Shown piece after piece: positions 17,671-56,193 of a DNA stretch of 64,000 nt. Under the pieces are notes generated by a model. The model searched no databases, was not told where the DNA came from, and saw only the letters and a list, made by a program, of their open reading frames with translations. The stretch covers positions 771,694 to 835,693 of the forward strand of contig JAGIBK010000001.1 in NCBI GenBank assembly GCA_017744355.1, written 5' to 3'. Each line of letters opens with the position of its first letter. Position 1 is the stretch's first letter. A program made the position numbers and the translations under genes. The stretch comes from a bacterium. GTDB taxonomy: Bacteria > Cyanobacteriota > Sericytochromatia > S15B-MN24 > UBA4093.

Positions 17671-17682
17671 GTGAACGCCTCT

Positions 17683-21231: not shown

Positions 21232-21244
21232 AGGGTTTCTCCGT

Positions 21245-34600: not shown

Positions 34601-34950
34601 AGGATGGTGAAATCGGCCGGAACCCCGGCCGCATCGGGGTGCTCGCGGCAGATCCGGGCGGCGAGGGCGTGCATGGTCATGATGGGCGCCGCCTCCAGCT
34701 CCACGGCCACCTGAGGCGCGAAGGGTGGCTGAGCAGCGGCGACGTCCTTGCGAATCCGGGATCGCATTTCGGCTGCGGCCATGTCCGTGAACGTGGTGGC
34801 CACGATCTCGAGCGGCGAGAGGCCATGCGTCCGCAACAGCTGCAGGTAGCGCGCCGAGAGCATGTGTGTCTTGCCGGTACCGGCTCCCGCCGTGACGCAC
34901 ACATCCCCGGGTGCCTCGACGGCACGTTGCTGGTCGAGCGTGAGTGGCAT
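31678..34950 (-). CDS. AddA/AdnB-like helicase-nuclease: UvrD-family SF1 helicase + C-terminal RecB-family nuclease with 4-Cys cluster
   Basis: Motif I VTAGAGTGKTHML. 1090 aa. C-terminal RecB nuclease motif ILDYKTDR. Cysteines (FARCPRAF...CPGCPYVLLC) suggest an Fe-S staple. Confidence 0.8.
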   Translation of the reverse strand: MPLTLDQQRAVEAPGDVCVTAGAGTGKTHMLSARYLQLLRTHGLSPLEIVATTFTDMAAAEMRSRIRKDVAAAQPPFAPQVAVELEAAPIMTMHALAARICREHPDAAGVPADFTILEDRPEGPIWALEQLDEAIAGLPAEIQDSIPSDLLRAAMEAFGADPLTAEEALARDPLDLPAVLSAERESLVARLITSDPWQEAVSALRRCAGDGLRETQRVETLALTDALARRTAGAPWPDFAPVLGIKLNVGSKKGWDPEQYEEVKKALSEVRDLLSQESLLWLEPGALDDVLAEMVPALRQAFAQIRGHLTAAKAQERVLDFGDLEVHALRALEHPEVLAYYWSRWRAFLLDEVQDTNPVQARLLNLLTEGAILTIVGDEKQSIYGFRRADVTVFGRMAEAIAGRGGDRVSLKESFRTHGPLLEIINRVCGPSLGSLRQDLVGQRSVPHDLPHLEAAHVPKAAAGDVEARRRIEARHIARRLKAWHEEGLLLHDKGAGELRPMRWGDVAVLCRTGAPLAIYEEALAAEGIPTTLARGSDLLATREALDGTALLRFLADRRDDQALVAILRSPFFAVSDAVLHRAADARGASSWWQVVEASSEPDLVTARDILQELLDQRSEPPSRLLQLADRLTGYSAVLAGMPGAHRRLADWSGLIDQVRRLERGAQDVLTVVRRIRRLSEAEIELDRPALEAGNAVLLMTIHAAKGLEWPVVVVPNLTADKPADRTRIRFDAELGVGLKFKDEEGNSQEPLRLKLHKRRVQEREEAEERRIFYVALTRVRDRLLLTAPDPVKGALAFLAPGLEEAGLVIDEVQPQPGDERPPLPGPLDPVPLPARWFEQPLGTVLSELPVTALAVFARCPRAFAYRYVDGHPGSEEVGPHGAVPSDDATELAPPLPVPVPHANRVGTAAHLALELDLDEAAALAPHVSDLAPDLVETALRFARSFRSEEVFREVREAISERERPITLSLGGLELKGVVDAIGPDFILDYKTDRVMDPDHHAMQLWVYTRAVGKPRGLLAYLQHGTLHEFTPDRLEAAGAQAAAIVQSIGEGRFEALPSPRTCPGCPYVLLCPSAITASAPTSQAAGTST

Positions 34951-38258: not shown

Positions 38259-39263
38259 TTAAGTAACCATCGATTGCTTCTTGAATGGGTCAGGCTGGTT
38301 GACCTCCGTCGGCGCGAGTTCCGAGGCCATTCGGGCGATGGTGGCCTGAACCTCGGCAACCACAAAGTCGGGCTCGACCACCCGGGCCTGACCGCCGTAG
38401 GACAGAATCCTGCGCACGGCCCGCAAAGGAATGCTCTCCTTGATGGCCACCAGACGGCTGCCGTCAGGCGTCTCCTCAAGGACTCGCAGGCGCTGGGGAA
38501 CCCTCTGGAACCCCGAGGCCATCGACGCCGAGAGCCAGATCTGAAACTCAAAGGCTGGGACCTGATCCAGCGAGACTGGGGTATCGAGCACCTCGACAGC
38601 CGGGCTGGTCTTGGTGGAGCAGAAGCGATCCAGGCGGAATTCCCGGTTCTTGTGCCACTCCGTGCTGCCCTCGGCCTCGGGGCAGTGCGCATGGAGGTAC
38701 AGAAAGCCGTCCTGCCAGGTTAGATAGGCCCGGTCCACCAGGTACCGCTTGGGTTCGCGGTTCAGTGGACGATAGGTCAGGCGCATCATGCGGCCGGTCT
38801 GAATGCCATGCTGAAGGCTGTCGAGGACCTGCGCGTCGTAGGCCGTGTTGCCCGTCCTCAGGAGGCGACCGGTGTAGGGATCAGACAGGCCTTCGCGAAC
38901 CGAGGCAGGCACTCGCTCGAATAGCGTGCGAAGGCGCTCCGCTTCCGGCAACTTGAGATCCTCGAATAGCGCCACGGCGGTCTGCAGGGCCGCCGCTTCC
39001 TCGTTGTTGGCGAACAGCTCCAGGTGCCCCATGTCCAGCTCATAGGCCTGCTTGGTCAGCTTGTCGCCGGGGCCTAGCGGACGAAAGCCAATGCCCAGCT
39101 TGCGCAACGCCTTGACGTCGGCCGAGATTGAGGCTTCCGAGAGCCCGGCATCCGTCTCGTAGTCCGAAGACAGTTCCAGTAGGCGGCTGAGAACCTCACC
39201 CCGAAACAAGGGGCCAGTAAGCAGCATCTTGAGGATGTTCCAGCGGCGTTCGAACGCGTCCAT
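38259..39263 (-). CDS. WYL-domain transcriptional regulator (wHTH + WYL; BrxR/CapW-like)
   Basis: N-terminal HTH (ERRWNILKMLLTG...VLSRLLELS). Central WYL-type motif (YLVDRAYLTWQDGFLYLHAHC). The ATG at 39263 has a GAAGGGGG RBS. The track ORF extends to a TTG at 39329. Confidence 0.7.
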   Translation of the reverse strand: MDAFERRWNILKMLLTGPLFRGEVLSRLLELSSDYETDAGLSEASISADVKALRKLGIGFRPLGPGDKLTKQAYELDMGHLELFANNEEAAALQTAVALFEDLKLPEAERLRTLFERVPASVREGLSDPYTGRLLRTGNTAYDAQVLDSLQHGIQTGRMMRLTYRPLNREPKRYLVDRAYLTWQDGFLYLHAHCPEAEGSTEWHKNREFRLDRFCSTKTSPAVEVLDTPVSLDQVPAFEFQIWLSASMASGFQRVPQRLRVLEETPDGSRLVAIKESIPLRAVRRILSYGGQARVVEPDFVVAEVQATIARMASELAPTEVNQPDPFKKQSMVT

Positions 39264-39398
39264 CGCGCCCCCCTTCGACGAATTTGCATGAATTAGCTTG
39301 CTTGACCCATTCGTACCCCAACCGATCAAAACTAACCCTCGTTCGCTACCAAAACATCATGGCAACCGGAGTAGATTCGGTTTCGAGCGGAGGAATCA

Positions 39399-40367
39399 AT
39401 GCTAGACGTGAAGGTCAAGTCGGACACGATCTGGGTCGGCGAGCACTTCTCGGTCGACTTTCAGCGGACCCTGCGCATTCCTGACGACGGGATCGTCTAT
39501 CCGCTACCGCCCGGCCTGAGTCGCTTTCCCGTGCGCAGGGTCGACGACTACCTCGACCGAGTGCCGCCTGCCTGGCGTGAGCACGGTGGCGTCTTCATTC
39601 CCATGTACCAGCGAGAGGCGCTCTGGCTCTGCTTCGGCGGCTCCTACTGGAAGCCCCACGCGGTTAAGATCGCCATCGGCAAGATCAACGTGGTGACCGG
39701 TAGGGGCTGGGCTCAGCCCCTCGAGGAATCCCCTCAGGATTACCTCGTCTGCCCGGATCAGCCCTGGCTCGATGGGATCAATGCCGGGGAGGGGATGATT
39801 CGCCAGTTCGTCGCCATGCCGCTCGGCCAGGGGTACACCGTCGAGGGACAGCTCACCGGCGCCGAGAAACATGGAGGCATCCAGCTCATCGCCTTCGCCC
39901 CGAAGCCGGGGCGTTTTCCCGACGAGCCGCCGCGGGTCGAGACCTGCGATTACCTGGTTTGCGAGAGCGCGGCCGCACCGAGCATGGGCCTAGCGGCCGG
40001 CGGCAAGATGACCCAGAAGATCTATGCGGACGAGTACGGTCTCGACACCTGGGACCAGGAGAACTACGGGCGGGTGTTCATCCACATCGTCGACAGCATG
40101 GTGTTCCGGGAGATCACAGGGGAAGAACCGCCTCCCACGCCCGTCACGGCGAAGACCTACGCCCAATATCACCTGCCCTGGTTCTCCCTCTATGACGAAC
40201 TGAAGCAGGACCTACCGCCCTCGGGCATCCTCAAGGGGGTGAAGTCTGTCAAACAGGTCGACGTCGAGAAGGGCCACCAACCGCAGCAAGACGACAGCTC
40301 GGTGCCGGTGGACAATATCGTCAAGCTAGGCAAGAAGCCAAACACGGTCCGGGACGGCGAGTGGTAG
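39399..40367 (+). CDS. Hypothetical protein (322 aa), divergent from the WYL regulator
   Basis: Long ORF. No domain recognised by eye. Confidence 0.35.
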   Translation: MLDVKVKSDTIWVGEHFSVDFQRTLRIPDDGIVYPLPPGLSRFPVRRVDDYLDRVPPAWREHGGVFIPMYQREALWLCFGGSYWKPHAVKIAIGKINVVTGRGWAQPLEESPQDYLVCPDQPWLDGINAGEGMIRQFVAMPLGQGYTVEGQLTGAEKHGGIQLIAFAPKPGRFPDEPPRVETCDYLVCESAAAPSMGLAAGGKMTQKIYADEYGLDTWDQENYGRVFIHIVDSMVFREITGEEPPPTPVTAKTYAQYHLPWFSLYDELKQDLPPSGILKGVKSVKQVDVEKGHQPQQDDSSVPVDNIVKLGKKPNTVRDGEW

Positions 40368-40887: not shown

Positions 40888-41727
40888 TTGATGCGCGACG
40901 ACGAGGAATTGTCGATCGATCCTGGTGATGACGAGCAGGGGCAAGATCTGATCGCCGAGATCGAGGCCCTCTGGGAGCAGCTCCAAGACGGGCTGCCCCC
41001 AGAGGAGCGTACGAATTTCGAGGGGACCCCGCGTTCGGTGTTCGCAATCGGCACAGCTACTCAACTTCGGTTGTTCGTCGAACCCGACCTCCCCGCCGTG
41101 CCCGGCCTCGATGCGCACGAGTTGTTTGACGAAACGGTCCCCCTGGAGGCCAGCCTCCAGAAGCTTTGTCGCTGGATTGCTGCCCGCCGCGGCAAGCGAT
41201 GCACGGCCCGGCAGCGATCCCTTCTCCGGTGGCATCTCGAGACCCGGGCGGCGGCGATCCCCCTTCACCTGGTCTTCGAAGGGGAGCCATCCATGCAGGT
41301 CACCATCCTCAACCCCGCAGCGAGCCGGGACTGGGACGATGAGGTCCCGGTCCTCGACGGCTGGCATGAGGAGCAGTTTCTGCGCCGGTTCTCGGGGATC
41401 CGCGAGAAGACCCTCGACTACCTCCAAGATGCCGAGAGCAAGTACATGGTGTTGCTGGGCTTGGAGCCCTGGCACACGTTCTACGCGACCGAGGTCGACT
41501 TCCTGCACGAGGTCGCAAGCTACGAGCTCATCATCACGCTCGGCCGATCCGGCCTGGTGGAGCATGTGCAGGAGGCTTTTGCCTACCTCGTGGCGAGAGA
41601 CCGGGGGATCGATGCCGAAACCGCGGCGACCTTCCAGCGATTCAAGCTGCTCTACCTGTTCGCCAAGGGTCTGGCGACCGACGACGAGATCCCGTCGCTT
41701 GACGATGAAGACGAGGTCCTGTTCTGA
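40888..41727 (+). CDS. Hypothetical acidic cytoplasmic protein (279 aa)
   Basis: Long ORF, D/E-rich. No domain recognised. Confidence 0.35.
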   Translation: MMRDDEELSIDPGDDEQGQDLIAEIEALWEQLQDGLPPEERTNFEGTPRSVFAIGTATQLRLFVEPDLPAVPGLDAHELFDETVPLEASLQKLCRWIAARRGKRCTARQRSLLRWHLETRAAAIPLHLVFEGEPSMQVTILNPAASRDWDDEVPVLDGWHEEQFLRRFSGIREKTLDYLQDAESKYMVLLGLEPWHTFYATEVDFLHEVASYELIITLGRSGLVEHVQEAFAYLVARDRGIDAETAATFQRFKLLYLFAKGLATDDEIPSLDDEDEVLF

Positions 41728-41728
41728 G

Positions 41729-42238
41729 ATGGCGGAGATAGGGCTGCTCCTGTGCCTGGTCATGGCGGCGTTCTCGTTGGTGTTCTGGGTGACCGGCGCC
41801 GCGATCGCCTGGGTCGGCGAGTTGCTGGACTTGCTGATCAGTTGTGGCAAGAGGGCTGCGAAGCCGGACCGCGGGCGGCATCGTAGGCCGTTGATAACAC
41901 GCTACCCTGCGACAGCCCTGGGAACGAGACCTTACGACTACCTCCTGGTGGAAGCGGCTCGGCACTACTTCCGGAGGGTCAACGATCGTCACCAGGAGAT
42001 ATTGGCAGCGTTGCCGGCCCCTGACAGTGACAGGCGCCGTGCTCTGGACGATTTCGACTTGGCGCGGGCGCACGAGATGGCCACCCTTGGTTTCCTGGTC
42101 GGCAGGATTGTAGCCTCGAGGGAATCGGAAGATGAAGACACTTCGATGACGGCTACGATGACTGAAGGTCGCCGACGGCGACAGCTTGCCTGCCATGCCT
42201 ATCAGGGCTATCGTAATCATCGGCGTGCAGTTTTCTGA
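41729..42238 (+). CDS. Hypothetical membrane-anchored protein (169 aa)
   Basis: ATG 2 bp after the previous stop. N-terminal TM (IGLLLCLVMAAFSLVFWVTGAAIAWV). Confidence 0.35.
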   Translation: MAEIGLLLCLVMAAFSLVFWVTGAAIAWVGELLDLLISCGKRAAKPDRGRHRRPLITRYPATALGTRPYDYLLVEAARHYFRRVNDRHQEILAALPAPDSDRRRALDDFDLARAHEMATLGFLVGRIVASRESEDEDTSMTATMTEGRRRRQLACHAYQGYRNHRRAVF

Positions 42239-44716: not shown

Positions 44717-45334
44717 GTGATAGGAACTGATATGACCCAGGAAAATGGCTCGCCAGCAGGAAGGGCAAGGGAATGGACACTGGCTGGGCTGGCAACCGCA
44801 CTTGCTGCCGTGGCTGCCCTGCTTTGGGTTGGCGGCATCCTCGTTCAGTTGGCCAACCACAAAGCCCAGCCCGAGCTGGTCGTGGCCGAGATCTTGGCAG
44901 CCGAACTGCTTGCAGTGGCTGGCCTCTTGGCCCTGATGATCCGCCAGCACGCCATCAGCTTGGACGGACCAACCCGACTGGCTCTCGCGAGCTGCTTGGT
45001 GGTCGCTAACATGGTCCTCTTGCCCAGCCCGTCCCCGACCGGCATTATCGGAATGGTCCTGTTGTTATGGGGGATCGTGTTCTTGATGCTCCTGAGTGGC
45101 GGATTCTCGGCACTCCTCCGGCCAACACCCTATGCGATCCGGACCGGCACCGAAGCCAGTGGCTGTGCTGCCGCGTTGTACTCTCCCCTGCTCCTGTTTC
45201 CGCTGGGGTTGGCGTCCGCACTGATCTATACTGTTATGGGACGGATGCTGCTGATCTTCTTTGTTGGGGTCGGCCTCTTGGTGTTCGGGGCCTGTTTCCT
45301 CAAAGCCGCCCTGGAGGAGCGCTCTCAACCCTGA
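44717..45334 (+). CDS. Polytopic inner-membrane protein (about 5 TM, 205 aa)
   Basis: Multiple hydrophobic helices. No domain recognised. Confidence 0.4.
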   Translation: MIGTDMTQENGSPAGRAREWTLAGLATALAAVAALLWVGGILVQLANHKAQPELVVAEILAAELLAVAGLLALMIRQHAISLDGPTRLALASCLVVANMVLLPSPSPTGIIGMVLLLWGIVFLMLLSGGFSALLRPTPYAIRTGTEASGCAAALYSPLLLFPLGLASALIYTVMGRMLLIFFVGVGLLVFGACFLKAALEERSQP

Positions 45335-45372
45335 TGCAGGGTGCGGAGCAACGAAGGACAAGAGGGAGGACC

Positions 45373-46083
45373 ATGACTGGCGTTCGTAGAGGTACCGGTA
45401 GACGACAGGCGCGGGAGGGCGAGATCGGTCAGGCCGAGATTCGCCGCGATGTTGCCGCCTGGTCCCGCGAGCAGCTGGAGCAGTTCGCCATCGTGCAGAT
45501 CCTCAGCAGCACTGTGCTGCGCGATCGCCTGCGCCGCAAGCTGGCCGTGACTCGCAGTCCCGCTGCTGCGCTGGAACAGCTCATCGCCGACGTTGATCGG
45601 GTCCTGGACGTTGACTTCATCGAGAGGCGCGAGGTTCGATCGTTCATCGACGATCTCGATGAACTCCTGGCGGCCATCGAGACCATGGCGGAGGTTGCGC
45701 CCGAGCAGGCGGTTGATGCCGCCCTGCACTTCCTCGAGGCGATCCCCCGGGTCTTTGAACGCGTCTACGACGAGTGCGAGCTGGCGACGTTCTGCTCGGA
45801 GCTGGCAACCCTTGCTGTGAAGCTCGCTGCTCGCTCGTCCCGGGGCATCTGGACTACAGGACAGAAGCTCGTGAAGGCGTACCTGACTGACGACTACGGG
45901 CGGTTTGACGAAGTGCCAGAGATCATGGCCAAGGCCCAACTCGATCGGGATCAGCGCTTGGCGCTCGCCGGCATCCTCGAATCCGAGGCCGCTCGGCTTG
46001 ACCAGTTCCAGGGCGCTCGTCTAACAGCTGCAGCCCATCGCTTGCGACTTGCCCGGGGCCCGCGGCGGAAGGTTTCGACATAG
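45373..46083 (+). CDS. Hypothetical alpha-helical protein (236 aa)
   Basis: ATG at 45373 with an AGGGAGGA RBS. No domain recognised. Confidence 0.35.
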   Translation: MTGVRRGTGRRQAREGEIGQAEIRRDVAAWSREQLEQFAIVQILSSTVLRDRLRRKLAVTRSPAAALEQLIADVDRVLDVDFIERREVRSFIDDLDELLAAIETMAEVAPEQAVDAALHFLEAIPRVFERVYDECELATFCSELATLAVKLAARSSRGIWTTGQKLVKAYLTDDYGRFDEVPEIMAKAQLDRDQRLALAGILESEAARLDQFQGARLTAAAHRLRLARGPRRKVST

Positions 46084-47032: not shown

Positions 47033-47501
47033 GTCTTGCCTCCAAGGGGCCGGGCGGTGGATAGAGCATAGATTTTAGCACGGTCAGCCGAATGCGCCGC
47101 GAAGGCTTTCCTCAGTGTCCGGCAGGAAGCTCGCCTCGGACTTCGACCTCGGCATCCTCCTTCTGCAACACTTCGGCGATGACGCGCGTCGTCACTGCCT
47201 CGAGGTGCTCGCTTGGATTCCCGAGACCCAAGCAGGCCAGCTTGACCAGCTGTAAGGTGCATGGACTGCAGTTGCGGCCCCTGCTGCGTCTCGCACGAGG
47301 TCCTAGCCGATCCTGTTACCTGACGCCCCCAGGCGCAGTGTGGCCGGCGTTTGACCTTTCAGGTGGCTTAGAATTTCGGAGAGCCCCGAGAGTTCCAGGC
47401 CAGATTAGCCCCGGCTCCTGTCTCTACCCCCTGTTTGGTTGGCTGGTTTTGCGGTAACCTTGTAGCCAAGGGTAGATTCCGAGGTCGCAGGGGCTATAAC
47501 A

Positions 47502-50441
47502 ATGTTTGCCAACAATCGTAAAGAGCTGAACCTGGTGAATCCGCCCGAGGGCAAGAAGGGCCTACGGGAAAGCCAGCTCGGTGCCGTGATGGCGGCAACC
47601 TCCCACTTCACGGTCAACCGGGACCCTGCGCTCATCTGCATGCCGACCGGGTCGGGCAAGACCGCGGTCCTGATGGCGCTCTGCTATCTCTTGTCAGCGA
47701 AAAAGGTTCTGCTCATCACGCCAAGTCAGCTCGTCCGCAGGCAGATCGCTAAGGATTTCAGCGAGCTTGCGACGCTTCAGCGGATCGGGCTGCTGCCTAC
47801 GACTGTCGCCGCACCCCGGGTCATTGAGGTGAAGAACCGGGTCAAGGACGAGGCCGCCTGGCAGAAGCTGCTGGCTGAGTACGACGTGCTGGTTGCAACC
47901 CCCAACAGCGTCAGCCCCTCGACGAAGAGTGGCATCTCGCCGCCACCAGATGGCGCCTTCGACGTCGTTCTTGTTGATGAGGCTCACCATAGCCGAGCGA
48001 AGACCTGGGCGGATCTGCTTGCGCAGTTTCCGACTGCGAAGCAGATTCTCTTGACCGCAACGCCTTTCAGGCGCGACGGGCGCGACATTCGCGCCCGCTT
48101 TGTCTACAACTACCCCTTGCGCAAGGCGGTCGAAGACGAGACCTTCGGCGAGATCCAGTACGTGCCCATCGACGTGGAACCGGAAAAGGTGGACCGGGAG
48201 ATAGCCAAAAAGGTCGAAGCGATTTTTTTGGAGGACAAGAAGGCGGGCCTCGAGCATCGCGTCATCGTGCGCACCAGCCGCAAAGACCGGGCTGATGAGC
48301 TGTATGACCTCTACAAAACGCACGCCCCCAGCCTGCGGCTCGCGGTCGTGAGCAGCAATAAGTCGATGGCGGTTATCGAAAAGGCCATCGACGGACTCGA
48401 GAAGGGCGACCTGGATGGCATCATTTGCGTCGACATGTTGGGTGAGGGCTTTGATATGCCCAATCTCAAGATCGCGGGCCTGCATGCCCCCCATAAGTCG
48501 CTGGCCATAACGCTCCAGTTCATCGGTCGGTTTGCTCGAACCATTGTCAAGCAGAGCGGCCAGAAAATCGGCCCGGCCAAGTTCGTGGCGGCGCTCAATG
48601 ACATGGAGATCGAGAAGGAGAAGCTCTTCAGGGAAGACGCCGATTGGAAGCGCATCATCGTAGATCTCAGCGAGAAGCGTATCGGCACGGAGCTTTCGAC
48701 CCAGGAGTTCTTTGAGGCGTTCGATGTGCTCAAGGAGCCGATGGATGCCGACGTGCCGCAGTACCTCTCCAAGACGAGCTTCCGACCTTTCTGCCACGTC
48801 AAGGTCTTTGAGGTCGTGGGTGGGTTCGCCCTGCGCGCGAGTCTTGATTCGCCCAATCACGACGTGCTGTTCCATGAGATCAGCGTCAAGCATCAGACCG
48901 CAGTCATTGTCTGGGCAACCCGCAAGAAGCCAAAGTGGCTGAAAGACGATGTCTTGAGCAATGTCACCCACGAGATGGTCGTCGTCCACTACGACCCGAC
49001 AACCCGGTTGATGTTCGTTTGCTCCACCGACCGAAGGGAGGAGTTCTACGCGCACGTCCTCAGTCAGTTCGTGGGGGGGATGTACCGCGAGCTGCCCTTG
49101 ACGGTGCTCCGGCGGGCGATGGCCGGTTGGACGGACGAGCGGTTCAGTAGCGTAGGCATGCGTAGTCGCCGCTTCCGGACCGGCACCGAGTCCTATCAGA
49201 TCAAGGCGGGCTCGAATACTCAGCTGGCCGTACATGCGTCGGACGGCCAGAACTACGTGGGGGGGCATCATGTCGGCAGCGGCAAGAACGAGAAGGGCCA
49301 GACCGTCTTGCTGGGGCTCAGCGGCACGTCCAAGATGTGGACGATCAAGTACGTTCCAATACCTGAGCTTATCGAGTGGTGCGATGAGCTCGCTGTAAAG
49401 GTTTCCGACGAGACCCATGACCAAGCAAAGTTACCACTCGGGGACGTCTTCGAGTACGGTGAGCAAATTACAGCATTCCCCAATGGCCTGGATCCGTTTG
49501 CCGGCGAATGGCACATGGATGTCTTCAAGAATGGGCACCGGGCGAGACTCGTCGACAGCAATGGCTCTTCAACTGTAGCGCCGCTTCAGGACCTCGAGTT
49601 GCAGGTTGATCCTAAGCAGAGCACCACCAACCGACTCGTGTTCACCATTGGCAAGGGCTCCACCAACGTCGAATTCGATTTGGTCCTCAAGCCCTTCCCG
49701 ACGTTCTCTGTGACCCCAGGCCAATCTTGCGCCTTGTACGCGTGCCACGGGCAAGACGTAGACGGCGACTTCGTGACCTACCTCAACGGAAAGCCGCCTG
49801 TCTTCTACTTTGAGGATATGTCCTCCCTCGCACAGAAAGATGTCTACGTGGCTCGCAAGACCGACGTTGTCCATTTCCCTGTCGGCCGGCTAGATTGCGT
49901 TGACTGGAAGGTCGCCAAGGTAGACATTCGGCAAGAAGTGACCACGTCGAAGGTGGGGCACACCTCGATCCACGACCATTTGAAGAAGGCGCTTTTGCCC
50001 TTGTTCGACGTGCTCATCTACGACCAAGGTGCAGGCGAGGTGGCCGACTTCATCGGATTCGAGAATGGGGCGACACCCCGCGTCGTACTCTACCACTGCA
50101 AGGGCTCGGGCAAGACCACAGCAGGTAGCCGGGTCGACGACCTCTATGAGGTTTGCGGTCAGGCCATCAAATCCGTTCAATGGGCAGATAAGCGCCGTTT
50201 GCTCGAGAACCTCAATAACACCAACCGCAAGGTCAGGCAGTACCTCAAGGGGACGGCCGCGGACGCCCAAGCCATCGTAGCGGCGATTGGCGGCCGTGAC
50301 TTCGCTCTCGAAATCGTCATCGTCCAACCAGGGCTCAAATCCAAGCCCAAGGTCGTGGACCGTCTTGCCCGCCTCCTCGGTGCTGTAGATGAGCATCTCC
50401 ACTCCAGTACGGGCTCTCAGCTGCGGGTGATGTGTTCCTGA
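47502..50441 (+). CDS. SF2 DEAH-box helicase with C-terminal PD-(D/E)xK/NERD-like nuclease-type domain (979 aa)
   Basis: Motif I CMPTGSGKTAV. Motif II VLVDEAHH. Motif III LLTATP. Motif VI QFIGRFART. C-terminal candidate nuclease core (FDVLIYDQGAGEVADF...VVLYHCKGSG). Confidence 0.7.
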   Translation: MFANNRKELNLVNPPEGKKGLRESQLGAVMAATSHFTVNRDPALICMPTGSGKTAVLMALCYLLSAKKVLLITPSQLVRRQIAKDFSELATLQRIGLLPTTVAAPRVIEVKNRVKDEAAWQKLLAEYDVLVATPNSVSPSTKSGISPPPDGAFDVVLVDEAHHSRAKTWADLLAQFPTAKQILLTATPFRRDGRDIRARFVYNYPLRKAVEDETFGEIQYVPIDVEPEKVDREIAKKVEAIFLEDKKAGLEHRVIVRTSRKDRADELYDLYKTHAPSLRLAVVSSNKSMAVIEKAIDGLEKGDLDGIICVDMLGEGFDMPNLKIAGLHAPHKSLAITLQFIGRFARTIVKQSGQKIGPAKFVAALNDMEIEKEKLFREDADWKRIIVDLSEKRIGTELSTQEFFEAFDVLKEPMDADVPQYLSKTSFRPFCHVKVFEVVGGFALRASLDSPNHDVLFHEISVKHQTAVIVWATRKKPKWLKDDVLSNVTHEMVVVHYDPTTRLMFVCSTDRREEFYAHVLSQFVGGMYRELPLTVLRRAMAGWTDERFSSVGMRSRRFRTGTESYQIKAGSNTQLAVHASDGQNYVGGHHVGSGKNEKGQTVLLGLSGTSKMWTIKYVPIPELIEWCDELAVKVSDETHDQAKLPLGDVFEYGEQITAFPNGLDPFAGEWHMDVFKNGHRARLVDSNGSSTVAPLQDLELQVDPKQSTTNRLVFTIGKGSTNVEFDLVLKPFPTFSVTPGQSCALYACHGQDVDGDFVTYLNGKPPVFYFEDMSSLAQKDVYVARKTDVVHFPVGRLDCVDWKVAKVDIRQEVTTSKVGHTSIHDHLKKALLPLFDVLIYDQGAGEVADFIGFENGATPRVVLYHCKGSGKTTAGSRVDDLYEVCGQAIKSVQWADKRRLLENLNNTNRKVRQYLKGTAADAQAIVAAIGGRDFALEIVIVQPGLKSKPKVVDRLARLLGAVDEHLHSSTGSQLRVMCS

Positions 50442-50767
50442 ACCCCAGCCAACCGATGAAATAGAATGAATCAGTTAATGTGACCCATAGTGGGGTTTGT
50501 TGGCCGATATTGATGGTGGAGGTGACTACCAGTAAATGGGGGCAGGTCCGGCGGTGTGCACCAAGGATAGCCTTGCCATGAGACTCGATCGTCGCCAGGC
50601 GTGACAGTTCGAAGCCAGATGCGCAGCCCCATTCCAAAAGGGCGGATGGATCAGGCCGCAAGCTAAGCTGCGCACTGTTCGCGCGCCTTTTTGGACTAGC
50701 AAATGTTAACCCTTCAGCTGTATCGGGTACACCAAGGTGCCGCCCACTGAATCGAGAGGGTAGAACG

Positions 50768-52036
50768 ATGACCAACAACTTTGAAGAGCGCCTCAAGAAC
50801 GTGCGTGATCTTCTCCGATCCACCGATGAGATGTTCGAAAACGCCGTAAGCTATCTCCCGAAGGACATCCAGAAATTTATCCGTGAACAGGTCTACGACC
50901 GCCTTTTTGGTGAGCTAAGGGAGTCTATCGTTCAGTCTCGCCCGCCCCGCATCATGGTCATCGGACGTACGGGCCACGGCAAGTCGTCGTTCATCAATGC
51001 CCTGGCGGGGCGGAGGGTTGCCGAAACCAGCAAGGATAGACCTGGTCAGCACCAAGCCGAGGAGCATCCCATCGTCTTTCCAAGTGGGTTCTCATGGAAC
51101 GTAATTGACTCCCGCGGGCTTTTCGATGCGACGACTCCGGATGGGGCCAGCGAAACGAATGCCGCAGACACCCTAAAGAGAGACTTGGAAACGTACGATC
51201 CTGATGTAATCATCCACGTTCTGCCGGCGAACGAGCGAGCAATCAGCGAGGACCTAACGGTCTTCCGTCGCTTCCAGGATGGATTCCGGGTCTCAAAGCC
51301 AACCATCATAGTCTTGAACAAGGCCGACGCAGTCAATCCGCTTAGAGCCTGGCCTCCCGAGGCATACCCCCAGAAGGCCGGCGAGTTGTTGGCCCACATG
51401 CGATACCTTGCCGATGAAGTTCTGCGGGTCGAGCACGAGGATCTCGTGGAAGATAGACCCTTCTTGGGATTCTTGGTAAAGGACAGCGCGTATCAGGCAA
51501 TCATTCCCGTGGCGTCTTACCGTGAGGAAGGCGAAGAAGAGTGCGTTTGGAACCATGATTTGGTTCGTTCATTCATCGGTAATGTTCTGCCCAAAAGTGC
51601 TCAGTTCTCCTTTTACGTTGCGCAGAACAACATGAGCTTATTGCGTGAGTACACAGACAACATCATAAACTCGTTTGTTGTTGCAGCGGGAGGGGTTGGC
51701 GGCACTCCGATACCCGTTGCCGATATTGTCGTTCTTACACCTCTGCAAATGCTGATGATCGCTCTAATTGGAACAATGGCCGGACGTCCTCCGTCGATGG
51801 ACACCGCGACGGAGTTCCTTGCCGCGGCTGGCGTCAATGTGGGCGTCGGACTTGGACTACGGGCCGCTGCCCAAACCATCTTGAGGGTCTTCCCGCCGAC
51901 TGCCCCTTTCGCTCCCTTTATCAGCGCGGGCGTCGCGTCACAGGGAACCTTGGCCTTGGGCAAGGCGGCACAGGCGTACTTCTTCAAGGATGTGACTGAT
52001 CCCGGAGGTGCCGGAAAAGTCCCCGTTACACCGTAG
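50768..52036 (+). CDS. P-loop GTPase with C-terminal DUF697-like hydrophobic domain (422 aa)
   Basis: G1 IMVIGRTGHGKSSFINALAG. G3 DSRG. G4 LNKAD. The C-terminal G/A-rich hydrophobic region resembles DUF697. Lower GC than its surroundings. Confidence 0.6.
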   Translation: MTNNFEERLKNVRDLLRSTDEMFENAVSYLPKDIQKFIREQVYDRLFGELRESIVQSRPPRIMVIGRTGHGKSSFINALAGRRVAETSKDRPGQHQAEEHPIVFPSGFSWNVIDSRGLFDATTPDGASETNAADTLKRDLETYDPDVIIHVLPANERAISEDLTVFRRFQDGFRVSKPTIIVLNKADAVNPLRAWPPEAYPQKAGELLAHMRYLADEVLRVEHEDLVEDRPFLGFLVKDSAYQAIIPVASYREEGEEECVWNHDLVRSFIGNVLPKSAQFSFYVAQNNMSLLREYTDNIINSFVVAAGGVGGTPIPVADIVVLTPLQMLMIALIGTMAGRPPSMDTATEFLAAAGVNVGVGLGLRAAAQTILRVFPPTAPFAPFISAGVASQGTLALGKAAQAYFFKDVTDPGGAGKVPVTP

Positions 52037-52229: not shown

Positions 52230-52280
52230 CACCGTTGACATCGTAGAGGTCACTGGTTCGAATCCAGTTGTGCCCACTAA
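52230..52280 (+). other. tRNA 3'-half remnant (T-arm + acceptor 3' strand): putative integration att repeat
   Basis: ...gtagaggtc ACTGG TTCGAAT CCAGT tgtgccc a. This gives a canonical T-stem/loop (TTCGAAT) and a 7-nt acceptor 3' strand. No complementary 5' acceptor strand (gggcaca) lies upstream. The 3' tail is cta, not CCA. Confidence 0.45.
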
Positions 52281-52543
52281 AGAACCCCGGATTAGCGATT
52301 CATCTCGCTTTCCGGGGTTCTTTCTTTGCGGAAGCCGAGTTCAAGGCCCAGCCGCCAAGTTCGCATCGACCCGCCCCCGCCTCCTCTGCGAGAAAAATTC
52401 TGGTGGAGGCGCGATTTAACAAGAGGCGAGAAAGCGTTAGCGTTCAGTCATCTGCAGGATGTCTACCTTGGTGTGTGACCTTGCCCCGGGAGGCCCGAGC
52501 GCCGAACCCGTTTCCGCTTCGGCCCCCACAAGAGGAGGCAACC

Positions 52544-53335
52544 ATGTGTCGTTCGGGATGGCTTGTCGGCCTGTGTGCCGTGGGGATCGCTTGCATGACC
52601 GGCTGCGCCGGGATACCTGGCACGTCGAGTGGGGACCTCAGCGGGGCCCAGTCCGGCTTTGCGCTCACCGTCCCGGCCCCAGACGGCTATCAGGGCACCG
52701 GCGATCTGAGCATGCGCTTCACAATGCCCCGTGGTACGGACTACGAGCTCGCGGCCCTCGGCTCGGACATCGAGCGGATTGACGTCATCCTCACCGCACA
52801 GGGCGCCATCTCCTTGCCCCCAGGCATCCCGCTGCCGTTCCCCGCCTCGCAACCCAAAGGGATGCCGACCCATCCGAGCACGGAGCCCGTGAACGCTCCG
52901 CCCCTGCCCCCGAAGGACCTGGAAACATTTCCCAACATCCTGACCGACCCGCCGCCCCCGGGGGCTCCCACCACTCCTTACCCTGTTCCCGCACCGCCCC
53001 CCCGCCTGGAGAAGCCCTTGTATCATCCCAACGTGCTCGCCAAGGCGTCCATCAGCCGCGGTGAGCTGGACAAAGGTCAAGGAGATGTCGTCTTCAACGG
53101 CCTAAAGGCCGGGGTCTACGGTATCGAGCTCGTGGCGTTCGGCCGAGATGGCCAGCAGATCGCCACCTCCATGCAGAGCGCGACGATCCGCGACGGACAA
53201 ACCGTCAGCGTGAACGCCACCTTCCCCCTCGGCGGACAGGGAAGCGGGACCAACGTCACCACGAGCGTCACGACCGGCCCCGGAACTCTGGTTTCAGCAA
53301 GCGCCGGAGGCGAGGTCCCCCCCGCGCGCCCATAA
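52544..53335 (+). CDS. Proline-rich lipoprotein (263 aa)
   Basis: AGGAGG RBS. MCRSGWLVGLCAVGIACMTGC is a lipoprotein signal. Pro-rich linker (PPLPPKDL...PPPPGAPTTPYPVPAPPP). Confidence 0.5.
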   Translation: MCRSGWLVGLCAVGIACMTGCAGIPGTSSGDLSGAQSGFALTVPAPDGYQGTGDLSMRFTMPRGTDYELAALGSDIERIDVILTAQGAISLPPGIPLPFPASQPKGMPTHPSTEPVNAPPLPPKDLETFPNILTDPPPPGAPTTPYPVPAPPPRLEKPLYHPNVLAKASISRGELDKGQGDVVFNGLKAGVYGIELVAFGRDGQQIATSMQSATIRDGQTVSVNATFPLGGQGSGTNVTTSVTTGPGTLVSASAGGEVPPARP

Positions 53336-53574: not shown

Positions 53575-56193
53575 TCACAACAGGACTTGTACATACCCTT
53601 CCGTTCCGTGAACCCGGATTCTTTGCCCGTCTTTTATCAGTTTGGTCGCATTCTCCACGCCGACGACGGCGGGCAAGCCATACTCCCGGGCAATGACGGA
53701 TCCGTGGGTCATCAAGCCGCCCACCTCGGTGACAAGGCCTTTCAAGGATACGAACAAAGGCGTCCAGCTCGGGTCGGTGAAAGAAGTGACCAGGATATCT
53801 CCCGCTTCGAGGTTGGCATCTTTCAGGCTCGAAACGACACGAGCCCGTCCCTCGACGACTCCGGAAGAAACGGGAAGTCCGGCGATCGCATCGGCAGGGA
53901 GGTCCTCTCGTTTGTACGCACCCGCCAGGATTTCACCTTCAGACGTGAGCACTCGCGGTGGCGTGAGTCTTTCAAATACTCCAAACGCGACTTTTCGTTC
54001 GCTAATGATCGAGTCATCGAGCTCCTTGGTGCGTACGACTTCACGGAACTCCTCGAAGGTGAGGTAGTAAATATCTTCTTTCTCTCGGGTCACGTTGGCG
54101 GCCACGAGTCGTTCAGCTTCTTTCAGAAGCGCCTGCTTATAAACGAAGTACCGACTCACGATGCCGTATTTAGGATATTCACGGTAGCCGCTGAGATTTC
54201 GGACGAGGTTGATCATCCGTTTCGTCTCTTCGACTTTTTCCTCGCCATCCGGCAATTGCTTCACGCGCTCCAAGAGCTCATGCGCTTTGTCCAAGGCCTC
54301 TTGTCGCCCTTTCTCGAATTTCTGGTGGCTGGCATGAGGCGCAAAGTTCTGGATATTCCCGAGAATCATCGGGACGAGCGTGGTGGGCCTTTCCATCCAC
54401 CGCGGTCTGGTGATATCGATCTCACCGGCACACCGCATGCCGTATTTCTGGAGATAGGCCTGGATGGCTTCTCGGGCTTCTCGACCACCTTCGAGGTTCA
54501 TCAGTTCCTCAAAGAACCGATCATCGGTGGCATGCGGTAAGTAGCTGATGACCTCTGGATAGGGACGGATCACATCCGAGACATCCAGCAACTCTAGCCC
54601 CATCTCCGAGGTGATGTTGTTGGGGACGGCTTGAGAAAGCTTGTCTGCTACGTTTTTCTCTCCCAGCCACTCCTGCATCTTATCGTTGAGCCAGAATGCC
54701 GCATTCATCGCCGTGATGATCACGCCCAGGCTTTGCGGGTCGGCCATGAGTTTTCTCAGCTGCTGGATGTCTTCCAGGATGAAATCAAATAGCTCGGATC
54801 CTGATCTTGCCTGGATATCCTGTTTCAAGGCGTCGAGCGATGCTTGAGTGCTTCCAATCAAGTCAGAAACGGTCTCCGGATCGTAGTCGTTCAAGGTCTG
54901 AAGCGTCGCAGGCGATAAGCCTGGATGGCCTTTGCCGGAACTCGGTCCCTGGGGCTCCTCTTGGTGCAATTGGATAAAATCCCCTCGCTCCAAGAGGGTC
55001 GTCAGGGCATCCTTGATGAGCGGATCGGATTTTCCCAGGCCATTCACGATCATGCCGCGCTTGGCAGGAGAAGCCAGTTCCTGCGTGATGTCGACGAACA
55101 GGCGTCCACCTGCTTCAAACATGGGGCGAGCAGCCGTCAACTGGAAGAACGACAGCCCCAGGGGTTTCATGGGGTCGGTCATCATCTGCTGATGCCCGAC
55201 GGAGACATAGACGCGGTTTTCTTTATCACCGGCCTCGGGGATGGGGTACAGCGTCGTGATCGGCCGACTCTGGACGATATGAAACGCATCATCTGCCAGG
55301 CACCATTCGATGTCCTGGGGCTGGCCGAAATGTTCTTCGAGCTTTCGCCCCAAGCGCTCGAGCCGCAAAATCTGCTCATCCGTGAGCGCTTGCCGATTTT
55401 GCAGCGCTGGCGGGATCTCCCGTTCTTTCGTACCGCCGTCTTTCAAAGCATCGTACGATAGCCTTTTGGCAGCTATCTTCTTGTCGATGATCTTGCCATC
55501 ACGCAGTTTGTAGGTGTCGGGGTTCACCAGGCCGGAAACCAGGGCCTCACCGAGACCGAAACTCGCTTCAATGGCGGACGCCTTCCGATTGGATGTGACA
55601 GGGTCGGCCGTGAACAAGGTTCCCGCCGCCTCCGGGATGATCATCTCCTGGACGACGACAGAGAGATGAACCTTGCGGTGGTCGTAGCCGTTTTGAAGGC
55701 GATAGGCAACCGCTCTCTCGGTGAAGAGCGAGGCCCAGCACTTGCTGATGTGCCGGAGGATGGATTCGCATCCGATGATGTTCAAATAAGTATCGTGCTG
55801 CCCGGCGAAGGAGGCCGTCGGCAGATCCTCTGCCGTTGCGCTGGATCGTACGGCATAGGCGTTTTTCGCTCCGAGCCTGGAGAGATGACGGGTGATCGCT
55901 TCCTGGATGTCTTCGGGGATGGTAAGGCCTTCGATGATCCTGCGAATTCTGCCGCTCAAGCCGCTGATTTCAGCCCGATCTTCGATGTTCAGAAGCGATA
56001 ACTGGTCAAGAAGCTCCAGGACCGACGGCGTTTCCTCGATGATTCGCTTGTAGGCTTCGGTCGTGACACAGAATCCCTCTGGTACGCGGAGGCCTTCCAC
56101 CCGGGAGATTTCACCCAAGTTCGCACCCTTGCCGCCTACAGCCAGGAAGCTTGTTTTGTCGATGTCCTGAAAGCCCAGAACGTATGAACTCAT
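53575..56193 (-). CDS. Rifampicin phosphotransferase-like PEP-utilising enzyme (PEP synthase family, 872 aa)
   Basis: N-terminal ATP-grasp/PPDK_N-like region. C-terminal swivelling phosphohistidine domain GGLMTHGSVIAREYGLPAVVG at the extreme C-terminus. Size matches the Rph family. Low GC. Confidence 0.65.
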   Translation of the reverse strand: MSSYVLGFQDIDKTSFLAVGGKGANLGEISRVEGLRVPEGFCVTTEAYKRIIEETPSVLELLDQLSLLNIEDRAEISGLSGRIRRIIEGLTIPEDIQEAITRHLSRLGAKNAYAVRSSATAEDLPTASFAGQHDTYLNIIGCESILRHISKCWASLFTERAVAYRLQNGYDHRKVHLSVVVQEMIIPEAAGTLFTADPVTSNRKASAIEASFGLGEALVSGLVNPDTYKLRDGKIIDKKIAAKRLSYDALKDGGTKEREIPPALQNRQALTDEQILRLERLGRKLEEHFGQPQDIEWCLADDAFHIVQSRPITTLYPIPEAGDKENRVYVSVGHQQMMTDPMKPLGLSFFQLTAARPMFEAGGRLFVDITQELASPAKRGMIVNGLGKSDPLIKDALTTLLERGDFIQLHQEEPQGPSSGKGHPGLSPATLQTLNDYDPETVSDLIGSTQASLDALKQDIQARSGSELFDFILEDIQQLRKLMADPQSLGVIITAMNAAFWLNDKMQEWLGEKNVADKLSQAVPNNITSEMGLELLDVSDVIRPYPEVISYLPHATDDRFFEELMNLEGGREAREAIQAYLQKYGMRCAGEIDITRPRWMERPTTLVPMILGNIQNFAPHASHQKFEKGRQEALDKAHELLERVKQLPDGEEKVEETKRMINLVRNLSGYREYPKYGIVSRYFVYKQALLKEAERLVAANVTREKEDIYYLTFEEFREVVRTKELDDSIISERKVAFGVFERLTPPRVLTSEGEILAGAYKREDLPADAIAGLPVSSGVVEGRARVVSSLKDANLEAGDILVTSFTDPSWTPLFVSLKGLVTEVGGLMTHGSVIAREYGLPAVVGVENATKLIKDGQRIRVHGTEGYVQVLL

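Follow-up and report, generated by a model that had tools for sequence, protein, structure and literature searches.

A candidate single-gene SF2 helicase-nuclease with an RdgC-like domain and a hypervariable domain in a bacterial defence island

The Res subunit of Type III restriction enzymes has an N-terminal ResIII motor and a C-terminal PD-(D/E)xK nuclease in about 970 aa, and SauUSI is a Type IV ATP-dependent restriction enzyme in which the nuclease, of the PLD family, is N-terminal and the reader, DUF3427, is C-terminal. In Sinorhizobium meliloti, the single gene Hna encodes a protein of 845 aa with an N-terminal SF2 ATPase, of which the core is DinG/XPD-like and the Arch domain reduced, and a C-terminal PD-(D/E)xK nuclease; its distribution is broad and patchy and its activity is controlled by the ATPase (PMC13381803). 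HmaA of Halomonas meridiana, a protein of 1183 aa, joins a Snf2 helicase to a C-terminal PD-(D/E)xK nuclease of the NOV_C (PF13020)/DUF3883 type with the residues D...ExK...E; this one protein suffices for defence, and it is found in an insertion hotspot of defence genes (PMC11232893). In Hachiman and Nhi, a helicase is coupled to a nuclease and the state of DNA is sensed (PMC12278908). The helicase of Nhi belongs to SF1 (PMC11232893).

We analysed a window of 64,000 nucleotides (contig JAGIBK010000001.1), in which the gene for a 979-aa protein lies inside a defence island together with BREX type 2 and McrBC (Table 1). This gene and the GTPase gene downstream (422 aa) both start with ATG, are on the same strand and are 326 bp apart, which agrees with the coordinates given in the original prediction. 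The lower GC content that it reported for both genes was also found, with 0.56-0.58 over 48-52 kb compared to 0.60-0.69 over 30-47 kb of the window. The two reading frames are real genes and not chance ORFs, as shown by the more than 2,600 homologues of the helicase, which have a uniform length of ~965-1000 aa.

Table 1. Features of the helicase gene and its downstream neighbour, in positions of the window
Feature	Position	Strand	Description or basis
Helicase, whole gene	47502..50441	+	SF2 helicase/translocase, RdgC-like, variable beta and PD-(D/E)xK-fold nuclease domains in a single polypeptide
SF2 motor, aa ~20-355	47559..48566	+	Pfam ResIII and Helicase_C
Helical linker, aa ~361-405	48582..48716	+	Two long helices, AF2 model
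RdgC-like alpha/beta domain, aa ~406-640	48717..49421	+	AF2 model, Foldseek
Hypervariable all-beta domain, aa ~661-795	49482..49886	+	~12 beta strands, AF2 model
PD-(D/E)xK-fold nuclease domain, aa ~800-979	49899..50438	+	AF2 model, Foldseek, invariant residues
Helicase/GTPase intergenic gap, outside the helicase unit	50442..50767	.	No Rfam match, no special folding
G-domain GTPase with DUF697-like tail, independent neighbour	50768..52036	+	Pfam MMR_HSR1

The SF2 motor is complete, as had been predicted. Pfam ResIII (E 8e-25) and Helicase_C (E 5e-8) both matched above their cut-offs, with further matches to DEAD (7e-14) and SWI2_SNF2 (2e-13). The motor carries MPTGSGKT as Walker A (K53), DEAH at 159-162, TATP, and QFIGRFAR with Q339, R343 and R346 as motif VI; Walker A, DEAH, motif III, motif VI and the two RecA-like domains of a ResIII-type SF2 enzyme are all present. 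K53, D159, E160, H162, T187, Q339, R343 and R346 are invariant in 116/116 relatives, the set over which we counted residue invariance throughout. The nearest PDB sequences were SauUSI (7clg, the best at E 9e-9), HsdR (3h1t), RadD and XPB. The protein had no full-length match in PADLOC, where it had been proposed for a check, and its PADLOC matches were confined to the helicase core: REase_III reached E 2e-4 over aa 155-258 only (~100 residues), far under family level, and HamB reached E 0.026. The core also matched REase_I and EcoAI HsdR weakly.

Like Hna, the protein is the product of a single gene with an SF2 motor, a C-terminal PD-(D/E)xK fold and a patchy spread. However, we rejected membership in Hna, because the core is ResIII/HsdR/RadD-like and not DinG/XPD-like (the typeIV_DinG match is marginal, over ~75 residues) and the protein is 979 aa long; the RdgC-like and variable beta domains are a further difference. 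HmaA shares with it the SF2 motor and the C-terminal PD-(D/E)xK fold, and was rejected because there was no NOV_C/DUF3883 match and the SNF2-rel_dom score of 23.7 bits fell under the 24.9 cut-off. With SauUSI (~950 aa) the protein shares the arrangement of motor, nuclease and recognition domain in one polypeptide without a cognate methyltransferase, although its nuclease domain is C-terminal and of the PD-(D/E)xK fold, and no DUF3427 match was found in Pfam. The joining of a helicase to a nuclease resembles the functional logic of Hachiman and Nhi. However, Hachiman consists of two genes, a HamA (DUF1837) nuclease and a HamB helicase, whereas this is a single gene with no DUF1837 match, and its motor is of SF2, unlike that of Nhi. 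The likeness to single-protein helicase-nuclease defence genes that was noted in the original prediction is supported by the SF2 motor together with the C-terminal nuclease fold, and we regard the protein as a candidate single-gene ATP-dependent helicase-nuclease of defence, of the kind of Hna, Nhi, HmaA and SauUSI.

The tail of 600 residues behind the motor had no sequence match in Pfam, PADLOC, NCBIfam or PDB. Its AlphaFold models are confident, with pLDDT of 88 for the RdgC-like region and 95 for the nuclease domain. In the latter (aa 800-979), a helix at 823-834 is followed by strands at 837-840, 850-854 and 860-866, a helix at 878-895 and then a strand. FokI was the best Foldseek match (prob 0.99, TMq 0.42-0.44), and XPF, SfsA, Mus81, Exo5 and BsmI matched more weakly. 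Of the PD-(D/E)xK/NERD-like signature that had been seen in this region (VLIYDQGAGEVADF at aa 837-850 and LYHCKG at aa 863-868), the PD-(D/E)xK core was borne out by the model and Foldseek, and the NERD part was not. None of the 18 C-terminal domains of the family searched against Pfam by hmmscan at E<=10 had a match, including NERD, HamA/DUF1837 and Mrr, and the full 979-aa protein had no match to these three at E<=1. The domain is like the cleavage domain of FokI in its fold and in the spacing from D849 to H865, which is 16, compared to 17 from D450 to D467 in FokI. However, a sequence relationship was not detectable, and hhalign of the domain profile against an approximate FokI cleavage-domain sequence gave no signal. 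Furthermore, His replaces the second Asp, and FokI has no motor.

The motif of this domain is D...HxK, in which the (D/E) position of (D/E)xK is taken by the invariant H865. This is unusual, and with the lack of a sequence match to any nuclease family it could mean that the fold is degenerate and non-catalytic, with a DNA-binding or regulatory function in a protein that is only a translocase or remodeller. We consider this very unlikely. D841, E846, D849, H865, K867 and Q887 are invariant in 116/116 relatives, and such strict invariance among sequences at 30-40% identity argues for an active site; conserved acidic and lysine residues, whose absence the original prediction had named as evidence against itself, are therefore present. 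In the model, D849 lies where beta2 begins, beta3 carries H865-C-K867, and the next helix bears E883 and Q887. In Cfr10I-type enzymes, an acid on a helix takes the place of the missing active-site acid. E883, which is E or D in 114/116 relatives, could stand in for the missing acid of (D/E)xK in the same way.

Between the linker and the nuclease domain are two further domains. Foldseek matched aa ~406-640 with RdgC of E. coli and P. aeruginosa (2owl/2owy, prob 0.99-1.0, E 7.5e-4) and with RdgC-like proteins of phages (prob 0.94-1.0). The TM-scores were low (0.2-0.47), and Pfam RdgC had no sequence match in the protein. We thus assign this region, with moderate confidence and on the basis of its modelled structure, to a putative RdgC-like DNA-binding fold. 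Although the modelled fold resembles that of bacterial and phage RdgC, RdgC itself is free-standing, has ~300 aa and lacks enzymatic partner domains, and the comparison does not account for the invariant His/Tyr/Lys/Ser residues of the domain; H432, G552, Y565, G588-H589 and W613 are invariant in the 116 relatives. In contrast, the beta domain has no invariant column and averages 20% identity to the query, while the motor averages 51% and the nuclease domain 36%. A recognition module under arms-race selection would be expected to show such hypervariability, and the beta domain is a candidate specificity or recognition module.

The family spans many phyla and is also carried on plasmids. Its architecture of ~970 aa is fixed, and the tail recurs in ~1,200 clusters at 50% identity, in nearly all cases at residues ~357-975. 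Our literature search found no publication on it. Its distribution is patchy, without synteny over 80 loci; when a conserved neighbour was sought in these loci, which come from many phyla, there was none, and the best non-self cluster was seen in 7/80. The surroundings are rich in mobile and defence genes. HsdM/HsdR, AbiEi/AbiEii, tyrosine and serine recombinases and IS3 recur nearby, closer relatives adjoin an MmeI-like R-M gene and a Bub ubiquitin-like system, and by raw frequency the commonest PADLOC families among 128 immediate neighbours were Type I MTase and REase, GajB, BrxHI, AbiEi, SoFic and MTase_II. Near-full-length copies are present in 53 plasmid records, and one copy adjoins IS66 on a P. 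aeruginosa megaplasmid, while the family is essentially missing from phage genomes. Nucleotide homology to the relatives at 85% and 70% stops within 9 bp (<=9 bp) of the borders of the helicase ORF. This confinement to the ORF, with a GC content under that of the flanks, suggests gene-sized horizontal transfer.

It is possible in principle that the protein is a housekeeping or stress-related helicase-nuclease of DNA repair and recombination, in which the RdgC-like module modulates recombination intermediates. The fold comes from a recombination-associated protein, RadD and XPB are among the nearest helicase cores, and many named hosts tolerate radiation or desiccation (Deinococcus, Rubrobacter including R. 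radiotolerans, Hymenobacter, Spirosoma and Adhaeribacter radiodurans). However, this explanation is unlikely in view of the patchy distribution without synteny, the copies on plasmids and beside IS elements and recombinases, and the R-M, Abi, BREX and Bub neighbours. The hypervariable domain and the apparent gene-sized transfer are also atypical of core repair genes.

The protein might instead be an orphan restriction subunit, like Type III Res or Type I HsdR, that depends on an unlinked methyltransferase or specificity partner. Its domain order and size are those of Type III Res (e.g. EcoP15I Res), the core has the weak restriction matches described above, a homologue is entered in one UniRef record as 'Restriction endonuclease subunit R', and M and R genes of Type I systems turn up repeatedly in the vicinity. 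Type III Res acts only as part of a complex with a Mod methyltransferase from an adjacent gene, whereas this gene has no linked Mod; we rejected membership in Type III Res because the 80 loci had no conserved neighbour and the REase_III match was short and weak. A methyltransferase is not conserved beside the gene, and Pfam had no match for the nuclease tail. No RdgC-like or beta domain of this kind is known from Res or HsdR. An orphan subunit is thus distinctly unlikely.

The original prediction had also suggested that the helicase and the GTPase could form a two-gene system. In such a system the GTPase might act, for example, as a sensor or membrane effector. The G domain of the GTPase matched Pfam MMR_HSR1 (E 3e-11) and contains G1 GRTGHGKS, G3 DSRG and G4 NKAD; behind it is a hydrophobic, Gly/Ala-rich tail, in which DUF697 matched weakly (aa 290-408, E 0.016), under the Pfam cut-off; several homologues have precomputed DUF697 matches. 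The genes are adjacent on one strand, both are GC-poorer than their surroundings and within the defence island, and GTPase homologues are found in defence-rich spots (a Bacillus R-M/McrBC island, and beside Abi_2). However, tblastn found the GTPase in 0/86 other helicase loci and the helicase in 0/8 other GTPase loci, the locus in the window being left out of both counts. The GTPase homologues, ~30 clusters compared to ~1,200 for the helicase, occur in unrelated contexts and never adjoin this helicase. Downstream of the helicase, the relatives at 70%, 47% and 42% have different genes, and homology to the 85% relative ends 3 bp after the stop codon; the gap shares no homology with what lies downstream in that relative. 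The gap contains a weak terminator-like hairpin with a T-run at 50669-50695; it had no match in Rfam and folded no better than shuffled sequences (z -0.23). Cooperation of the two genes is extremely unlikely, and comparative genomics already brings it close to refutation. The GTPase is an independent gene and a chance neighbour of the helicase.

We consider it probable that the 979-aa gene encodes a self-contained ATP-dependent helicase/translocase-nuclease, most likely an enzyme of anti-phage or anti-plasmid defence. The analysis shows its domain anatomy, conserved residues, fixed architecture, lack of a constant partner and surroundings rich in mobile and defence genes; we infer that DNA is the substrate, and that translocation, dimeric cleavage and a role in defence belong to the protein. 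The N-terminal ResIII-type motor would bind DNA and translocate on ATP. RdgC is a ring-shaped dimer, and the RdgC-like domain may clamp or encircle the DNA and would probably drive dimerisation. The hypervariable beta domain would provide the recognition of a target or trigger, and the C-terminal FokI-like domain would cleave the DNA, with a putative active site made of D849, H865-x-K867 and E883, and with D841 and E846 close by. As in FokI, a double-strand break would probably require two copies. The gene has neither a methyltransferase nor any other partner as a constant neighbour, and a linked modification enzyme therefore cannot be what separates self from non-self. Discrimination would have to depend on modification, as in Type IV enzymes, or, in the manner of Hna, Nhi and Hachiman, on a phage protein or the structure of the DNA.

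More tentatively, this protein may be the founding member of a family of defence nucleases, widespread but unnamed, each of them a single ATP-dependent protein. In these, an RdgC-like DNA ring and a hypervariable recognition domain would couple an SF2 translocase to a FokI-like nuclease with a non-canonical D...HxK active site, and the enzymes would be restriction-like and methyltransferase-independent, with the specificity set by the beta domain. If this is true, the ~1,200 clusters would represent methyltransferase-independent, restriction-like enzymes spread across many phyla and plasmids.

The helicase gene is a real and intact member of a large, unnamed family of helicase-nucleases whose combination of domains is unusual. 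Its ORF (47502-50441, + strand, 979 aa) and that of the GTPase (50768-52036, + strand, 422 aa) were found where the original prediction had placed them, with 326 bp between them, and the lower GC content claimed for this region was confirmed (0.56-0.58 at 48-52 kb versus 0.60-0.69 for the preceding 17 kb). The motor is a complete SF2 helicase (aa 20-350; Pfam ResIII 8e-25, DEAD 7e-14, Helicase_C 5e-8), and all of its motif residues are invariant in an alignment of 116 full-length relatives, 30-85% identical, that were collected from 80 genome loci and from database matches. The closest curated families of the motor were Type I HsdR/EcoAI, RadD, XPB and Hef, all far under the family cut-offs, and the closest PDB sequences were SauUSI (7clg), an HsdR fragment, RadD and XPB. 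Because the motor is of the ResIII/HsdR/RadD-like type, it would be suited to translocation on, or remodelling of, dsDNA. PADLOC matches were confined to this helicase core (REase_I, PbeA, mREase_IV and similar models), and none of the PADLOC models matched the full-length protein.

The 600-residue tail had no match among Pfam, NCBIfam, PADLOC and PDB sequences, and was studied as a structural model (aa 361-979, from a 50-sequence alignment; pLDDT 88.1, pTM 0.83). For its middle domain, the sole PDB match in Foldseek at E<=0.001 was RdgC (2owl_B, E 7.5e-4); further RdgC chains (2owl_A and 2owy_A) followed at E 2-3e-3, the RdgC matches having probabilities of 0.99-1.0 over about 300 aligned columns, and in BFVD the models matched were of phage 'recombination-associated protein RdgC' (probability 0.94-1.0). 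Because the matches in both databases are RdgC, the modelled domain at about aa 405-640 is assigned an RdgC-like fold, with modest TM-scores. H432, G552, Y565, G588, H589 and W613 are invariant in this domain among the 116 relatives. The strictly invariant polar residues H432, Y565, H589 and W613 lie within aa 432-613 (window ~48795-49340), where E563, S607 and K611 are nearly invariant. Polar residues kept this strictly are more suggestive of an active site or a ligand-binding site than of a surface for generic DNA binding. Between the RdgC-like domain and the C-terminal domain sits an all-beta domain (about aa 661-795), which has a mean identity of 20% and no invariant column, the corresponding means being 51% in the motor and 36% in the nuclease domain.

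The C-terminal domain, modelled separately (aa 785-979; pLDDT 95.2, pTM 0.92), matched three FokI chains best (Foldseek probability 0.99, E 5e-3 to 9e-3, TMq 0.42-0.44), and at lower probability XPF, SfsA, Mus81-Eme1, Exo5 and BsmI, all of which are PD-(D/E)xK enzymes. In the model, a helix (823-834) and a strand (837-840) precede D849 and the strand 850-854, and these are followed by a strand at 860-866 with H865-C-K867 and a helix at 878-895 that carries E883 and Q887; this predicted order fits the canonical PD-(D/E)xK core. E812, D841, E846, D849, H865, K867, Q887, Q942 and P943 are invariant in the tail of all 116 relatives, and position 883 is E or D in 114 of them. Since conserved acidic and lysine residues are present, the nuclease-like C-terminus of the original prediction stands, with the caveat that the candidate motif reads D...HxK, not D...(D/E)xK. 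In Cfr10I-type enzymes a helix-borne Glu stands in for the strand-borne acid, and by analogy E883 may be positioned to take the role of the missing acid here. A catalytically dead tail, to which the departure from the usual motif might point, is improbable in our view given residues so strictly kept. The families proposed for the domain did not hold, as no Pfam signal for NERD, DUF1837/HamA or Mrr appeared even at E<=10. The nuclease-domain profile gave only noise against PDB sequences. In hhalign it showed no signal against the FokI cleavage-domain sequence (approximate), and therefore the relationship to FokI is at the level of the fold only.

The family is large and its layout is fixed. Database homologues of the full-length helicase number more than 2,600 and vary very little in length, and an exhaustive phmmer search with aa 361-979 against 1.84 billion representatives returned 1,198 clusters. 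Of the top 150 tail matches, most measure ~950-1030 aa and carry the tail at residues ~357-975; about 40 were of 400-900 aa and started mid-protein, which looks like truncation. A search with a profile of just the nuclease domain recovered short pieces that lack Pfam domains and, as the single exception, a protein of 309 aa that has nucleotidyltransferase domains and lies on a 1.1-kb contig; it revealed no other domain combination. It is from the uniform layout and the lack of other combinations in these searches that we take the architecture to be fixed. Seven proteins of the family (P0298, P0321, P0346, P0352, P0357, P0359 and P0399; 136-301 aa) cover the nuclease-domain region only and lie on long contigs or in complete genomes; each may be either the remnant of a pseudogene or a nuclease in its own right. 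Our literature search (RdgC-like/FokI-like helicase defence proteins, COG1061) found nothing relevant to the family, which is thus unnamed in the literature searched and in PADLOC models to 2023, and may have received a name more recently.

When one genome per species was scanned, at least 577 relatives were found, in Firmicutes, Bacteroidota, Proteobacteria, Planctomycetota, Acidobacteriota, Deinococcota and other phyla. We clustered all ORFs of 80 loci, which included 10 kb on each side if the contig was long enough, and no neighbour was conserved, the top cluster being an ABC-type ATPase in 7 of the 80. Nucleotide homology to the relatives of 85% and 70% identity spans 47493-50444, essentially the ORF alone. 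The upstream 121-aa ORF (47092-47457) was rejected as a partner; its translation is rich in Arg, Pro and Ser and looks spurious, none of the loci has a homologue, and Pfam gave no match. The DUF3892 gene that precedes the 70% relative was likewise dismissed, being absent from the window. We consider it unlikely that the protein is an orphan restriction subunit that acts with an unlinked partner.

The neighbours that recur in the 80 loci are tyrosine and serine recombinases, IS3 transposases, HsdM/HsdR and AbiEi/AbiEii. Among 128 directly adjacent proteins, the commonest PADLOC families were Type I MTase and REase, GajB, BrxHI, AbiEi, SoFic and MTase_II, each with 2-3 proteins as raw counts. 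The 47% relative is near an MmeI-like Type IIL R-M enzyme, and a 280-aa ORF overlaps its 3' end by 17 nt (L093). At L094 (6955-9607), a distance of 3.6 kb separates the 42% relative from a Bub-type operon (Multi_ubiq, Prok-E2_E, ThiF and BubE) and a kinase-TPR-HTH trio, and the 70% relative is downstream of a BrnT toxin. Near-full-length copies occur in 53 plasmid records, including P. aeruginosa megaplasmids where they are beside IS66, and the family is essentially absent from phage genomes. A role in repair or recombination would agree with the likeness to RadD and RdgC, and in these mobile and defence-rich settings we regard it as unlikely, if slightly less so than the orphan subunit.

We consider it reasonably probable that the helicase is a single-gene defence helicase-nuclease. 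In its mode of action it resembles Hna, HmaA, Nhi and SauUSI, which are helicase-nucleases made of a single protein, and its layout is that of a Type III Res subunit, but by their defining features it could be assigned to none of these. Identity with Hna was rejected, as the known Hna is an 845-aa DinG-like protein (PMC13381803), and so was identity with HmaA, an 1183-aa protein with Snf2 and NOV_C (PMC11232893); the Nhi helicase is of SF1 (PMC11232893). The protein is most likely a stand-alone ATP-dependent DNA translocase-nuclease. Its RdgC-like domain may serve as a DNA clamp and possibly dimerise the enzyme, and dimerisation would bring two FokI-like domains together, with one strand cut by each. 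The hypervariable beta domain is a natural candidate for recognition of the target or trigger. Since no methyltransferase is linked, self and non-self would be discriminated by modification (Type IV-like, as in SauUSI), or by DNA structure or a phage protein (as in Hna, Nhi and Hachiman). New helicase-nuclease defence genes turn up regularly.

The GTPase is an unrelated neighbour of the helicase. It is an intact G protein with G1, G3 and G4, a Gly/Ala-rich hydrophobic tail and a weak DUF697 match, from a small family of about 30 clusters. The original prediction had suggested that the two genes could form one system. However, tblastn found this GTPase in none of the 80 helicase loci, no SF2 helicase was present in seven independent GTPase contexts, and in the 95 pooled loci the genes were together solely at the window's own locus. 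Co-occurrence being nil elsewhere, the two-gene hypothesis is unsupported. The 326-bp gap holds a weak terminator-like hairpin and showed no Rfam match, unusual fold or repeats, and a sigma-70 scan found no promoter. A partnership of the two genes is, to us, highly improbable. Three of the seven contexts, on two Leptospirales contigs and in a third assembly (GCA_964585735.1), share an uncharacterised six-gene operon in which the GTPase has ~40% identity to that of the window (L084 3901-10383, L085 3870-10422, L087 3882-10425). Its order is Ser/Thr kinase, an unknown protein (~485 aa), an adenylosuccinate-synthetase-like protein (~500 aa), GTPase, Zn-ribbon (~95 aa) and a second unknown protein (~250 aa); the kinase, synthetase-like and Zn-ribbon partners were sought as components of the window and none is there. 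In the other contexts, the GTPase is alone in an R-M/McrBC/HNH island of Bacillus sinesaloumensis (L086), beside an Abi_2 gene (L088), or among metabolic genes (two contexts). With a tail that acts on membranes, it might be a defence candidate in its own right.

The window is a defence island. The four-gene run in it may represent either AddAB in a housekeeping role or a module associated with defence; its PDDEXK_1 pair consists of a UvrD-type helicase with a C-terminal PDDEXK_1 (1090 aa, AddA-like) and an 872-aa AddB-like protein. The HSDR_N_2-ankyrin gene is preceded by uncharacterised ORFs at 39399-40367 and 41111-42238 and followed by the gene of a DUF6880 protein (45067-46083). The ORF that follows the GTPase is probably a lipoprotein whose real start is an internal Met near 52544; with translation from there, a signal peptide of the lipoprotein type (…GIACMTGC…) lies ahead of the Pro-rich region. 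The layout of the PPDK_N protein is that of rifampin phosphotransferase/PEP-synthase-like enzymes.

Other features of the window and their coordinates
Feature	Position	Strand	Remarks
BREX type 2 (Pgl-type), complete	7960-25456	-	PADLOC E 0 to 1e-203
PglW	21245-25456	-	BREX type 2, PADLOC
PglX	17683-21231	-	BREX type 2, PADLOC; region low GC (0.54-0.56)
BrxC/PglY	14035-17670	-	BREX type 2, PADLOC
PglZ	11390-14038	-	BREX type 2, PADLOC
BrxD	10056-11393	-	BREX type 2, PADLOC
BrxHI	7960-10059	-	BREX type 2, PADLOC
McrBC-like pair	26026-29408	-	750-aa AAA_5 (McrB-like) and 377-aa McrC (PF10117)
Four-gene run	29496-37569	-	ADP-ribosylglycohydrolase (475 aa), RNase T/DEDDh exonuclease (278 aa), two PDDEXK_1 proteins
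WYL/WCX regulator	38259-39329		After the four-gene run
HSDR_N_2-ankyrin protein, 787 aa	42254-44617	+	N-terminal HSDR_N_2 (PD-(D/E)xK-like), many ankyrin repeats; PADLOC candidate PDC-M72A, E 4e-54
355-aa TTG ORF	52268-53335	+	Next downstream of GTPase; Pro-rich region; no Pfam match
872-aa PPDK_N protein	53575-56193	-	PPDK_N at N-terminus, PEP-utilizers swivel domain at extreme C-terminus

For the window, the proposed two-gene system is corrected to a stand-alone gene and an unrelated GTPase. The helicase family is common and unannotated, two-thirds of the protein being without a Pfam or PADLOC model, and its joining of RdgC-like and FokI-like domains is unusual. We know of no earlier enzymatic context for an RdgC-like fold; if the helicase is a defence enzyme, it would provide the first, and would add to the known systems a common one that consists of a single gene and escapes the annotation tools now in use. 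A motor joined to a FokI-like cleavage domain via a hypervariable domain would also bear on how targets are chosen, and possibly on engineering.
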